Below, piece after piece: positions 12,498 to 63,175 of a stretch of DNA of 64,000 bases. The position numbers and the translations under genes are program-made. A model generated the notes under the pieces. That model did not search any database, had not been told where the DNA came from, and saw nothing but the letters and a program-made list of their open reading frames with translations. Each line of letters begins with the position of its first letter. Position 1 is the stretch's first letter. The stretch comes from Eledone cirrhosa (lineage: Eukaryota), in the NCBI GenBank assembly GCA_964016885.1, contig OZ024763.1, positions 1,426,001-1,490,000 of the forward strand, read 5' to 3'.

Positions 12498-15400
12498 AGC
12501 TCTGGTTCGTTAGAATTTATTGAGCGCTTGCCACACATCTCGGAAGTTGTTTTTCGCTAATTTCCAATAGCCGAAATACGATTCTCGCTAATTTATATTT
12601 GTATATATATATATATATAAGTTAACAAAATGATTATATATATATACATCTTTAAATAATAATTTTGTTAACTTATTTATATATATATACATATTTGTAT
12701 ATATATATATATATATATATATATATATACAGATAAGTAGAACTATACATCTCCAGCACCGGTCAGCAGATTATATATATATATAGGAAGTAGAGCACTC
12801 AGTTCAGAGCACAGGTTCCGGTATAAAGTTAGTCTCACCCAACAGATTCTCATCCGTTGGGTGATATGTGCGTCCTTGAGGTTGCTTTGCTAATTTGATG
12901 TGGAACTAACTTCATGTATATATAGGATAAACTCTACTACCCAAAGTATTAAGTACTCTGGTGCGTTATGGTCCGCTTGGTTCCTTATGAGACTTAGTTA
13001 TATATATGTATATATATCGGAAGATGGGCCTCTCTAAATATTTCACTTCTTGTTTCAAAGGAAGCTGTATTATCTCTATCTATCCTATCACTTAAACTTT
13101 GGCAAGTCAGTTGGGCATGAAGGTGAGAAACTAAATTTTCTTTTCTTTGTTTTACCAAACCGAGTTACTTCCCCTGTGTATTAGTCCTCTCTAGCTTGTG
13201 TTGGGTTCCATAAATTTGAAACTTGAAGAAAAAACAAACATTTGACTTCAAAACAAAATAAAGTACTGTGGGTTGTGTGACTGAGTAAAATCTCTTCATA
13301 GCTGTGCCCCAGCATGGCCTTATTCTAATGACTGAAACCAGTAAAGAAATATGCATATTTTTATATATATATATATATATATATATATATATATACATAC
13401 ATATGTATGTACACATTGTTATATATATCTGCTGCCATTCCCTCACACCCCCACCTCTCACCTCTGTCATCCTGTCTGTCTGTGCGGCCACCACCCTGTC
13501 TGTCTGTGTGGCCACCACCCTGTCTGTCGAGACAGGACACAAACTGATTCGACTGCTGCAGTTGGGTTCAAGGAAGATTAATGCTGTTATTTACTTTTGG
13601 TTCATCAACTACACACAACAACCCATTACTATATATATAGTCTAGTGGGCCATTGCTAGATAAATCTGCTCTTGGCTCTGTAACGTACCCCAAACACATC
13701 TCAATATATACACACACATGTATATATATATGTGTGTGTGTATATATATATATATATATATATCCCCCCCATTGGTATCTACACTTCCTAAGACTGGCTG
13801 TTATTTAGATCATTAAAAGCTTAACATTTCAAATGGCTCTTTTGATGGGTTTGACACCACACACGTGCGAATATTAAATTATGAGACAACACATGCCATC
13901 TCTCTGTTTGTCTCTCTCTCTCTCTCTCTCTCTCTCTCTCTCTCTGTCTTGAGGTTGTCAACTCAGTATTTTTTACAAACTCTCCCATCCCACATATGCC
14001 CTCTACTCAAATGTTTATCTGACATTCTTTTAAAACTTGGGGGAGTTATATCTAATTTAATAAACTAACATGAAATCTGCCCTCAGAACAAATCCATTGG
14101 ATAGGTGTGTGTGTGTGTGTGTGTGTGTGTGTATATATATATATATATTGATGTGATATATATGTATATATTGTGTATATGTATATACACTAACAAAGGG
14201 ATGCTGCAAACTTTTTTGGCTTAAATCACCTCCCAAAATCTTTCAGTGTTTCTTCATATATATGAGAATAGAATTGGTGAGATGGGTTAAACCTAGGGCT
14301 TTTTAACATCCCTCCCTTATATATATATATATATATATATACACACACACACACACACACATATATATATACACACTCCATACTGGCACAGTATTGTGTT
14401 ATCTTTGTCTCATCTTTTTCTTCTCCCTCTCATCTCTCTCCCTCTCTCTCTGATATAGTCCCTTTTGCTGATGTCAATCTGTTTGTCTATATTTGGAGGG
14501 GGGAGGGGTCATTAAAAAAAAAAGCAAAAAAAAAAAGCTAGTTCTGTTGTCCGCATTCAAGAGTTGTGTTTTTTTTTTCTTCTATTTTTTTTTTTTTTTT
14601 TTTTCAAAGGATAAAAAGAAATCTTACCTTAAAACTTTATTGAATGTAGACTAACTCTCATTTTTCCAGCTGTTCTTCCCTCACCCCACCCTATACCCAG
14701 TCACCTCTCTTACTACCCACCCCCCTCATCAAGGGTCCTCCCCCACCCCACCCTGTCTTAATTTCTTGCAGAGAAGAGTTTTTTTTTTTTTTTTTTTTTC
14801 CACATTTGTAATATAATGTAAATGATTTTAGAACACTAACTCTGTCCTTGTTTTTACTTTAAAGAGAAAAAAAAATCACAGAAAAGACATTTTAAAATAT
14901 TTGAAAACATATATAAAAGAACAAAAAAAAATGCAAACAAAAATGATTTCAAAGCAAGAAATAATTTGTTATGTCTAAAAGTAATAAAATTATGAGGAGA
15001 AAACCAAGTTCTTCGTTCAGTTTCTTATTTTCTTCGTGTTTTCTTTAATTCTGTAATTATGTGTATGTATATATATATATATATATATATATATAATATG
15101 CTCCAGCATGGCCTCAGCCCGATGGCTGGAACAGGTAAAAGAGTAAAAGAGAGTATATATATATATATTTCTTGTAAATGTGTATATATATATATATATA
15201 TATTTAATTCTTGTAAATGTATATATTTAATTCTTGTAAATGTATATATATATATAATTCTTGTAAATGTATATATATATATAATTCTTGTAAATGTGTA
15301 TATATATATATATATATATAATTTTTGTAAATGTGTATATGTATATATATATTATATAATAATGAAAATTATTGTGTACAGTGCTCAGGTGCACTACAAC

Positions 15401-15737
15401 TCATCAAAGGTGCATGTATAGTACATAGAATAATGTACAAATGTCAGGAAAGTGAACACTATGAGTATTGATACATACACATGCATATATAATGGCTTGC
15501 TGCCCTGACCATGGATACATTAAAGCTCCAACATACTCTGTATGGTTTAAATACACAAGTCTCCGATATCCAAATAGCTAAATGTCAGTTGAAGGGTGAC
15601 CTGAATGTGGCTTGGCTCCTGTCAGTGTTTAAGAAGTTCAGGGCTGAAACACTTGGTCAAGTGGAGTTTATTATCTGAAAACCTGTTTCGCAGCTCTCCT
15701 GTGAGTTTCTAACCACTGTCTATATATGTATATATAT

Positions 15738-15900
15738 AAGACCACAAAAAAGATTGGCGGAGGTGGTGAGAGCTGACCTCAAATCGCTGAGACTCACAGA
15801 GGAGATAACAAAGGACCGTGACAAGTGGAGAGATGCTGTGCTGAAGAAGACCCGTCCCACCCTTGCAAGCAGGGAAAAGCAGACATAAAATGATGATGAT
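15738..15900 (+). mobile_element. 3' end of a second RTE-like family
   Basis: RPQKR..EVVRADLKSL...DRDKWRDAV then (GAT)n; a related tail lies on minus at ~31835-31985. Confidence 0.7.
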
Positions 15901-16046
15901 TATTCAAAATTATTTGAAGGAAATTAACCAACTTTCATTAAAAACTATTTAATCACTTACAATTCCAATCTAAAGTGAGATGGATCTGTCCATTTGTCAA
16001 TCGGCAAATCCCAAGGTCTTCACACCTTTGTAAATTACAACTTGTA

Positions 16047-16575
16047 TGGCAGACCCAGAAAAACCTGGGACGACTTGATAAATTCCGACCTCACACACTT
16101 ACACCTCTCCAAGACAATGTCACTACACCGAGATCTTTGGCGCTACGCAGTAATACAGAAGACTCGCCTTGCCTAAGTACAAAGCGAAACCTACTACAGT
16201 CAGTAGGCACCTCTTAACCAAAATATACCCCCGTCCCACTACCCCTAGCCCATCCACACCACCCCTTTTAATGTAAAGTTATGTTGGTACCACAACATCC
16301 AGTCCGAAACAAATGAGGTCGTGTAGGTGTCACGACAAAAAAACACAGTCCACGCTGTAATGTGGCCGTGTAGGTAACACAGTAAAAACCTCCCAGTCCA
16401 CACTGTAAACGTGGTTGGTGTTAGGAAGGGCATCCAGCCGTAGAAAACCCGCCAGACAGTCCTATGTGAGCAAGACAACCACTCTTGCCTCAAGTGGGAA
16501 AACTCCCGTCCAAACCCATGCAAGTGTGGAAGATGGGCGTTAAACGATGATGATGATGATGATGATGATGATAAT
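16047..16575 (+). mobile_element. 3' end of the same RTE family
   Basis: Near-identical to 33916-34394; (GAT)n tail. Confidence 0.9.
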
Positions 16576-17262
16576 GATGTCTCTCTACTCTCCTTTGAGA
16601 TTTCATTGTATGCCTCCACTTTTGACACAAACACACACACACACACATATATATATATACATACATACAGATACACATATGTACATATGCGTGTATATAT
16701 AGACTATCTGTGTTTGCGTATATATATATTATATATAAAATGTATGCATGTAAATACACAAACGCGTGGAGAGTTCTGATTTAAGGTGAAGATCTAGGTA
16801 ACATTTTTATTTTATTCTTCTGGGAGTCTAGCAGTAATATGTCCATGCTTGTCTCCTCTCTACACCAACGATGTTGTCTAATTGGAACGTGATGGGCTGA
16901 TGCTGTCCCATTACCAATATCACTGCAGACATTGCTGTTGGAACTCGACACTGCCGGTAGAATTATCACAAGGTACTACCGGTGTCAATACACAGAAAAG
17001 GACATAAGACGTACACAAACTAATCTATACCGTTCACTATAACAGGTAATGCTAACATTTCCCTTTTCATCTTGTAATTTCTCGTCCAAAATTCTTTATT
17101 AAATTTCTAGATGGTGACTTATTCCCCTTCCATTGCCAGTGTCAGGGATTGTATGAGGGGTCTAGTCGGAAATTTCGAGAATTTTAACCGAATGCGATAA
17201 AAGTCTTTTAAGTAAGCCAAAGGATAGCACGGCCGATATGTTGTGACTATAAATAACTAAGA

Positions 17263-62186: not shown

Positions 62187-62300
62187 TAGGAACAAGTAAG
62201 ACCCCGACGGCTGAGCTCAAGCCGTTTCGACGGCTAATTCAGTACAGAATTAGCCGTCGAAACGGCTTGAGCTCAGCCGTCGGGGTCTTGCTTGTTCCTA
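62187..62300. repeat. 54-bp-arm palindrome containing the 3' half of a hammerhead, in a (TA)n-flanked element ~62108-62300
   Basis: GAAACGGCT tgagctc AGCCGT-C (stem III plus GUC) at 62259-62281; arms 62187-62240 / 62247-62300; a related fragment lies inverted at ~12930-12990. Confidence 0.7.
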
Positions 62301-62481
62301 TATATATATATATATATATATATATATATATATATATCCGAATGAAACAGTTCTAGTCCTGTAGAAGCCATTTCTATATTAAATATTTATACTCTGCTAT
62401 GTATTGAGTACCTTAATTACTGTGGTTACCCCCGATTGAACCCGGGATAAACATATATATATATGTATATATATATATATA

Positions 62482-62973
62482 TATCATCATCATCATCGTT
62501 TAACGTCCATCTTCCACGCTTGCATGGGTTTGGACGGGAGTTTTCCCACTTGAGGCAAGAGTGGTTGTCTTGCTCGCATAGGACTGTCTGGCGGGTTTTC
62601 TACGGCTGGATGCCCTTCCTAACACCAACCACGTTTACAGTGTGGACTGGGAGGTTTTTACCGTGTTACCTACACGGCCACATTACAGCGTGGACTGTGT
62701 GTTTTTTTTTGTTGTGACACCTACACGACCTCATTTGTTTCGGGCTGGATGTTGTGGTACCAACATAACTTTACATTGAAAGGGGTGGTGTGGATGGGGT
62801 GGGGGGTAGTGGGACGGGGGTGTATTTTGTTAGAGGTGCCTACTGACTGTAGTAGGTTTCACTTTGTACTTAGGTAAGGCGGGTCTTCTGTATTACTGTG
62901 TAGCGCCAAAGATCTCGCTCCAGTGACATTGTCTTGGAGAGGTGTAAGTGTGTGAGGTCGGAATTTATCAAGT
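62482..62973 (-). mobile_element. 3' end of the same RTE family
   Basis: Reverse complement of ~33940-34394; inserted in (TA)n. Confidence 0.9.
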
Positions 62974-63066
62974 CTATATATATATAAGCCATTTCTATAT
63001 TAAATCTTATATAGAGAAAGAGTAAAGAATAACATGGTCGGCTGTACAAAAAGGGTTTTATTTCTA

Positions 63067-63175
63067 GTATTAACAATTGTTTCATTGATCAGGTGAGTCT
63101 AAAGGCCGCTAATCACTCGAAATTGCGTCACTCCACCTTAAATACAGTGTCTCTCTGATCAAATCATAGGAATAC
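63067..63175 (-). ncRNA. Degenerate hammerhead motif with long stem-II loop
   Basis: GTATTC-CT(-)ATGA-tTTGATCAG...CTGATCAAt-GAAACAATTGT-TAATAC; core G missing. Confidence 0.45.

Follow-up and report, generated by a model that had tools for sequence, protein, structure and literature searches.

Minimal hammerhead motifs in TA-bounded insertions of an Eledone cirrhosa contig: probable truncated ends of Penelope-like elements

A stretch of 64,000 nucleotides from the octopus Eledone cirrhosa (assembly GCA_964016885.1, contig OZ024763.1, positions 1,426,001 to 1,490,000; hereafter the window, numbered from its first letter) was found to carry short insertions that contain type I hammerhead motifs and are bounded by (TA)n tracts. 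The window has a G+C content of 36.6% and contains many microsatellites. Five complete minimal type I hammerheads were present, at 21748(+), 21741(-), 22133(+), 22032(-) and 61086(-). They belong to three families, whose complete motifs lie at 21.7 kb (A), 22.0-22.1 kb (B) and 61.1 kb (C) and all showed the core CUGANGA...GAAA...UH in type I order together with helices I and II. Two further sites carried only the 3′ half of a hammerhead, namely a fourth family, D, and a second copy of A, designated A′. The elements form two nests, one at 21.4-22.5 kb and the other at 60.5-63.7 kb. The hammerheads that the original prediction had placed at 21744-21790, 22121-22190 and 61055-61090 were shown to be complete, at 21748(+), 22133(+) and 61086(-), while the mirror copies at 21741(-) and 22032(-) were missing from its list.

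The motifs were detected by a type I hammerhead descriptor that comprised the core, a helix I of at least 4 bp, a helix II of at least 3 bp and a self-complementary helix III; it was composed after the motifs had been looked at and follows the published minimal motif. Exact-core matches in local dinucleotide shuffles averaged 0.013 and 0.007 for 200-nt and 1000-nt blocks, respectively (maximum 1; 150 shuffles each), and 0.21 and 0.16 when one core mismatch was permitted (maximum 2). The predicted excess over shuffled sequence was borne out, with five complete motifs compared to a mean of about 0.01, and no additional motif was found in the window when the descriptor tolerated one or two core mismatches. 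In a relaxed, scored scan five matches reached a score of at least 8 (shuffle mean 0.4, maximum 2, 100 shuffles) and two more had score 7, with 0.76 expected at 7 or above; under a score of 8 the numbers came close to chance. The five complete minimal hammerheads are real.

Three sites that had been described as hammerheads were not recovered as drawn by the relaxed scan, and their scores do not exceed chance. At 63067-63175(+) the best core was CTAAAGG, with two mismatches and a poor helix II; a long-range stem is present, the folding z-score is -1.1 and the motif is unconfirmed. Equally unconfirmed is 60586-60625(+), where the core CAGATGA has one mismatch and helix I is shorter than 3 bp (z-score 0.8); this site has a palindromic helix III, lies 25 nt from a TA tract and may be a decayed copy. 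No core within two mismatches was found at 15672-15722(-) (z-score -1.6), and the claim for this site is not supported. The diversity claimed for the window came down from eight to four families, of which three have the complete motif and the fourth has half of it.

Family A was found as a head-to-head pair. Its long arm (21614..21744, minus strand) has the core from 21741, a predicted cut after 21703 and an 80-nt tail (21693-21614), and its short inverted arm (21745..21796, plus strand) has the core from 21748 and runs as far as an internal TA-like site. All 52 nt of the short arm are complementary to the long arm, the junction is centred on GAATTC and 7 nt separate the two cores; the 5′ end lies 3-4 nt upstream of the core. 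The hammerhead of A has an ACAG/CUGU helix III with GUA, an 8-nt helix III loop and a U.U pair at the base of helix II. Folding prediction gives a long hairpin for this palindromic copy, which is therefore probably inactive. A′ (62338..62452, plus strand), which is 90% identical to A, is cut off inside helix II and has the full tail. The segment 62340-62366, which had been called a degenerate hammerhead, is actually the 3′ half of family A, with 27 of 27 nt identical. Besides, a 27-nt match to A′ was seen at 62987-63013(+) (E 0.023); it begins 1-2 nt past the predicted cut and is one weak case.

The family B pair lies next to A. Its long arm (21832..22108, minus strand) includes 76 nt upstream of a core that starts at 22032, a predicted cut after 21982 and a 96-nt tail; in the short inverted arm (22109..22238, plus strand, core from 22133) about 52 nt are deleted near the junction. 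The arms agree at 121 of 123 nt, the junction is centred on a TATATA palindrome and about 100 nt separate the two cores. The hammerhead has a long helix II (a 32-nt helix II region) with G.U at its base, and an AUA triplet. A frame of 32 codons antisense to the B tail was considered as the end of a GIY-YIG domain and dropped, being too short and in the wrong orientation for the tail; it is also shorter than the 55 aa required for the Pfam scan.

Family C occurs as a single arm (60962..61165, minus strand), with the core from 61086, a pyrimidine-rich upstream tract, a 5′ end 79 nt upstream of the core, and an 81-nt tail past the equivalent site, ending in (CA)n. Its hammerhead is of the classic minimal form, with an ACGU helix III, GUU and, in this family only, an extra base (A) between positions 9 and 10.1 together with G10.1-C11.1. 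Two tail-only copies were found, C2 (42588..42658, plus strand), followed by (CA)n, and C3 (44061..44132, minus strand), which starts at most 2 nt from the start point of C2; (CA)n terminates all three copies.

In family D, the long arm (62109..62243, minus strand) contains the 3′ half of a hammerhead (GAAA, helix III and GUC) and an 81-nt tail. The short inverted arm (62244..62298, plus strand) matches it at 53 of 55 nt, with the junction within helix II at a TGTACA palindrome with one mismatch. Helix III is 5 bp long with a palindromic loop. Of the hammerhead claimed at 62247-62290, GAAA, helix III and GUC were confirmed, and CUGANGA is absent. D2 (12931..12987, plus strand) is a tail-only copy flanked by short TA runs.

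A, B and D are thus head-to-head pairs with a tail on one arm only, and the 3′ end lies 89-150 nt from the predicted cut. Short arms stop at an internal TA-like site, 10-55 nt beyond the predicted cut, and the copies without hammerhead (C2, C3 and D2) start at or within about 8 nt of this site. Because 12% of C positions lie within 3 nt of a TATA or ATAT word, the two out of two tail-only C starts at a TA-like site are suggestive only. The 5′ ends are ragged: they lie just upstream of the core in A, inside helix II in A′ and D, far upstream in B and C, and within the tail in C2, C3 and D2.

Each of the 10 ends of A, B, C, D and A′ falls no more than 1 nt from a (TA)n tract of at least five units, compared to 1.0% of background positions within 3 nt; for B and D the left end, and for C both ends, had been set from the TA tract itself, leaving six independent. 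For other repeats, ends within 10 nt of a TA tract were found in 4 of 38 matches of a short interspersed element (SINE)-like repeat, 2 of 5 RTE-type matches and 0 of 9 CRE-like matches. This confirms the TA context and supports the suspected (TA)n preference, which is already published.

A and D have tails that are unrelated except for a common hairpin, RCTC-Y-stem-ATW-GAGY followed by RC, at 21657..21675(-) in A, 62391-62409(+) in A′ and 62157-62180(-) in D. It was also found at 12499-12525(+), in an unrelated TA-bounded segment. With the inner stem, the hairpin matched four times in the window compared to a shuffle mean of 0.2 (maximum 2, 200 shuffles), where three of the four matches shaped the descriptor and only 12499 is independent and not significant alone. 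The count of four for TRTTRAGYRCYNT compared to 0.37 is circular, as the pattern was drawn from those copies. D2 has the hairpin with one substitution, B keeps the GAGYRC part only and C is without it; minimum-energy folds show the outer stem in A and A′, not in D and 12499. The region 12182-12601 consists of 26-nt units (an 8-nt word plus (TA)n) that run into the 113-nt TA-bounded segment with the hairpin.

Four sequencing runs were aligned to 60948-61410 at 80% likeness, with reads chosen by similarity. Organism A gave 13,816 contigs (X1) and 15,063 reads from restriction site-associated DNA (RAD) (X11), split between C and a nearby repeat (61188-61395). The 9,648 contigs of organism B (X5) fell almost entirely on C, and organism G gave 11 matches (X10). 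Family C is a very abundant dispersed repeat in two species, this octopus and one other, and contig and RAD depths give no copy number. The neighbouring segment 61188-61395 is another dispersed repeat, abundant in organism A and absent from the contigs of organism B. Exact-pattern scans gave no matches in metagenome contigs (C and A) or viral contigs (C).

Among the best 40 of 161 variant rows, 14 rows at 12 positions fell in C. None of the 12 positions was among the 32 core and helix positions and one was in loop II, with 152 positions covered (p 0.052). Loose ends just 3′ of helix I indicated subfamilies with a common hammerhead, and loose ends at 61104-61107 run on into sequence like the upstream tract of the window. 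Joints that return by 54 nt and 62 nt, each in a single contig (organisms A and B), correspond to tandem hammerhead units. A pile of read ends at 61103 in X11 was discounted, since it probably arises from restriction sites in the RAD library.

The four families probably represent 5′-truncated 3′ termini, consisting of a pseudo-long terminal repeat (pseudo-LTR) and a tail, of endonuclease-bearing Penelope-like elements (PLEs) encoded elsewhere in the genome. The link to PLEs had been proposed for this window and is supported by the layout, the tails and the (TA)n context; it was itself already published in 2014 and 2021. The style of the hammerhead and the tail motif point to likely Hydra-clade membership for A and D, and C resembles the classic minimal hammerhead found in PLEs of the Poseidon/Neptune type. 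Helix III self-duplexes are predicted at -12.8, -2.2 and -1.7 kcal/mol for A, B and C, with a palindromic loop in D, in line with published PLE hammerheads; cleavage is predicted for dimers or with the help of a protein only.

By analogy with PLE biology, a PLE protein with reverse transcriptase (RT) and GIY-YIG domains would nick (TA)n and prime cDNA synthesis at internal start sites on the RNA. A far start site would yield the tailed arm, and a nearer start, or a stop at the TA-like site, would yield the short arm. Synthesis would likely arrest about 80 nt or less from the structured hammerhead, and the cDNA would likely be joined head to head via annealing or self-priming at a short native palindrome.

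Several results weigh against this reading. No PLE RT or GIY-YIG frame was linked to any copy among the 279 non-repetitive frames of at least 55 aa in the window, as expected of truncated copies. The statement in the original prediction that no RT or GIY-YIG open reading frame (ORF) is present stood for GIY-YIG and PLE RT but not for RT in general, as an RTE-type RVT_1 frame was found at 32630-33532 (E 2.3e-31). No Rfam hammerhead model was significant at the motifs (best RAGATH-1-hammerhead, E 0.25), focused Rfam scans of stretches up to 600 bases gave no significant ribozyme, and a scan of the whole window gave microsatellite noise only among the matches listed (150 of 310); the minimal forms present here fall outside the Rfam models. 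Predicted helix probability in the monomer is low (helix I 0.01 in A, 0.07-0.14 in C and about 0.3 in B). The tails, at 80-96 nt, are longer than the published 30-40 bp, and four short family motif strings were absent from the supplement of Craig 2021 (PMC8557442). For family C, the variant test rests on the best 40 of 161 rows and on similarity-selected reads, depth drops steeply across 61092-61128, which would also suit a short family, and 61129-61193 was skipped as repeat, so that the upstream extent of C lies outside the alignment.

Some of these points bear on the strongest rival explanation, namely that at least some families, and C in particular, consist of specialised non-autonomous PLE derivatives, about 150-280 nt of hammerhead plus tail, mobilised in trans and without a full-length parent of their own. 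Such elements, and the mobilisation of pseudo-LTRs in trans, are already described in the available text of published work, and the abundance of C in two species with depth falling just upstream of the hammerhead, the uniform 80-81-nt tails of A, C and D, and the tandem C joints of 54 and 62 nt (one contig each) would all suit them. On the other hand, 5′ ends are ragged in each family with more than one copy, the depth drop in C may reflect indels and the skipped repeat, as loose ends continue into upstream-like sequence, and extreme truncation, proposed in 2014, gives the same pattern. The families had originally been called non-autonomous; their 5′ ends differ among copies of one family as well as from family to family, which is what truncation would produce. 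Truncated autonomous PLEs are the more likely source, and dedicated non-autonomous units seem rather unlikely to account for these families.

A related and equally speculative proposal concerns the tail. The 80-nt tail with its hairpin (a U/AUW internal loop within RCTC-Y-stem-ATW-GAGYRC) could conceivably be a working cis-element of TA-targeting PLEs, conserved from Hydra-clade elements of coral and sea cucumber to octopus, that would bind the RT and set the cDNA start and so spread 150-250-nt hammerhead-plus-tail units, even tail-only units, as minimal non-autonomous retroelements at very high copy; we hold this doubtful. The hairpin was seen by eye in two of the six Hydra consensuses, Hydra-2_Amil and Hydra-2_Ajap, in the part of the source available; of the others in that material, two have at best a partial hairpin and two end about 40 nt past the cut. 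No mention of the tail hairpin was found in the literature searched.

Far less probable is that the insertions are monomer remnants of non-LTR retrozymes spread via circular RNAs that arise from hammerhead self-cleavage. Type I hammerheads, the lack of a coding frame, low G+C content and rare tandem joints in C would fit such remnants, and dispersed monomers are described in other animals in the accessible portions of the published accounts. No head-to-tail hammerhead array was found, however, in a self-comparison of the window or among the best 150 of 171 tandem repeats; pairs are head to head, the motifs are minimal and not canonical, and no copy starts or ends at the predicted cut save for the weak 27-nt match at 62987 (E 0.023). 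That the palindromes are TA-targeting miniature inverted-repeat transposable elements (MITEs) or fold-back artefacts with hammerheads by chance is largely refuted and highly improbable: Tc1/mariner elements target TA, a remnant of that kind is present and the window holds other short palindromes without hammerhead, but the number of motifs is far above that in shuffles, the arms abut without spacer with a tail on one of them, and A′ and C occur as single arms, unlike MITEs.

Several other features were found in the window. A host exon of a PANTS-like/UPF0545 gene lies at 24800-24918(+), 2.5 kb away from the A/B nest, with AG and GT borders and a match to Pfam PANTS-like (E 1.3e-9). The 40 aa that it encodes are 90% identical to a protein named as Octopus vulgaris, the sole match of two candidates, which points to an octopus source, probably other than O. 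vulgaris. The RVT_1 match (32630-33529, with a PHD finger) we take, from its domain layout, to be an RTE-type long interspersed element (LINE). The remnant extends over 32630-34382(+), and kindred 3′ ends lie at 16048-16545, 21445-21586, 31904-32006 and 62498-62974, two of which adjoin family A copies. Fragments at 34394-35576, 20285-20645, 25003-25245, 39306-39666 and 50777-51067, without Pfam hit, presumably resemble CRE-type non-LTR elements with a restriction-like endonuclease, and a transposase remnant at 41020-41850 (HTH_32, E 3.2e-5) is presumably mariner-like. The SINE-like repeat is present at 5899-6096 and at about 30 other places, with 38 matches to the copy at 22262-22447, mostly away from TA tracts.

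Short AT-rich palindromes without hammerhead were found at 5037-5198, 12107-12178, 38495-38558, 47364-47479, 49580-49630, 60531-60576 and 61414-61531; the last has a relative at 42406-42570, and several adjoin TA tracts. Large satellites occupy 25885-29064 (27-nt pyrimidine-rich unit), 44149-45696 (degenerate (TA)n) and 51377-53442 (24-nt unit). Element P (63267-64000) has a partial tandem and an inverted 5′-truncated copy in a PLE-like layout; on its minus strand at 63574, CUGACGA and an A-like helix II are accompanied by GAGG in place of GAAA, without Rfam match. A twister was sought in element P and not found, and no tRNA genes were found in the window.

These insertions are most likely octopus examples of a known pattern, published in 2014 and 2021, and not a new kind of element. 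Their description helps to annotate repeats that are easily misfiled as SINEs, MITEs or unknown, and the short, near-perfect head-to-head pairs and tail-only copies are handy natural records of PLE insertion. If confirmed as an RT-binding signal, the hairpin would provide a 25-nt handle on PLE template choice and on the formation of inverted ends. Literature searches on hammerheads of octopus or cephalopods listed no study devoted to them. Bonar 2026 (PMC13282606) reports, in the text available, 30 recently active Penelope families in O. vulgaris, and its repeat library may already contain A-D.

Compared to known systems, the closest counterparts were found among minimal hammerheads and PLEs. 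According to the available text of Cervera and De la Pena 2014 (PMC4209133), animal genomes contain thousands of minimal hammerheads each, in several families and with low in vitro activity, most of them isolated motifs or pairs on opposite strands spaced by 100-700 bp, probably truncated PLEs; octopus is not named in that text. The motifs described here similarly have the conserved hammerhead core, a helix I of 4-8 bp and a palindromic helix III that suits dimers, fall into several sequence families in one genome and occur as close opposite-strand pairs or singles, and C also has the extra base after A9 and G10.1-C11.1 of the published motif. They differ in their tighter core spacing (7 nt and about 100 nt), in the U.U and G.U at the helix II base of A and B, respectively, and in the 32-nt helix II region and AUA triplet of B.

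Craig 2021 (PMC8557442), in the sections available, describes inverted 5′-truncated copies with a one-sided tail, (TA)n targets and non-autonomous elements of Chlamys, and includes octopus Naiads with (TA)n targets as well as Hydra-1_Obim of Octopus bimaculoides, a Hydra-clade element with hammerhead and (TA)n target. Hydra-clade PLEs share with the insertions the (TA)n target and a hammerhead near the 3′ end, with an inverted 5′-truncated copy in one entry, and several entries share with A the U.U helix II base and the 4-bp ACAG/CUGU helix III with GUA; the helix III loop is 8 nt in A compared to 1-3 nt in these entries. Hydra-1_Obim differs in hammerhead sequence, and the families of the window have no linked ORF.

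In the available text of Frangieh 2024 (PMC11167929), PAc, a Poseidon of Anolis carolinensis, is the only PLE reconstituted in vitro. Its protein nicks both strands of AT-rich DNA, reverse transcription starts at two internal sites whose spacing equals the tail, and the hammerhead is protein-assisted and dispensable for insertion. PAc shares with the insertions the AT-rich target, two 3′ ends separated by the tail and a hammerhead that lies some 100 nt upstream of where the insertion ends; its ORF starts inside helix II and its tail is 30-40 bp, whereas in the window the ATG frames inside the hammerheads of A, B and C end after 2-6 codons and tails are 80-96 nt. Non-LTR retrozymes, as far as described in the available parts of PMC7229834 and bioRxiv 10.64898/2026.07.22.740005, are likewise non-coding, PLE-related and dispersed as monomers with a type I hammerhead, but they form head-to-tail arrays with circular RNAs in contrast to the head-to-head pairs or single truncated arms found here. 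Head-to-head palindromes were attributed to self-priming on an antisense template in the available text of Arkhipova 2013 (PMC3846280), and the head-to-head, one-tailed layout of A, B and D is the layout described there and in Craig 2021.

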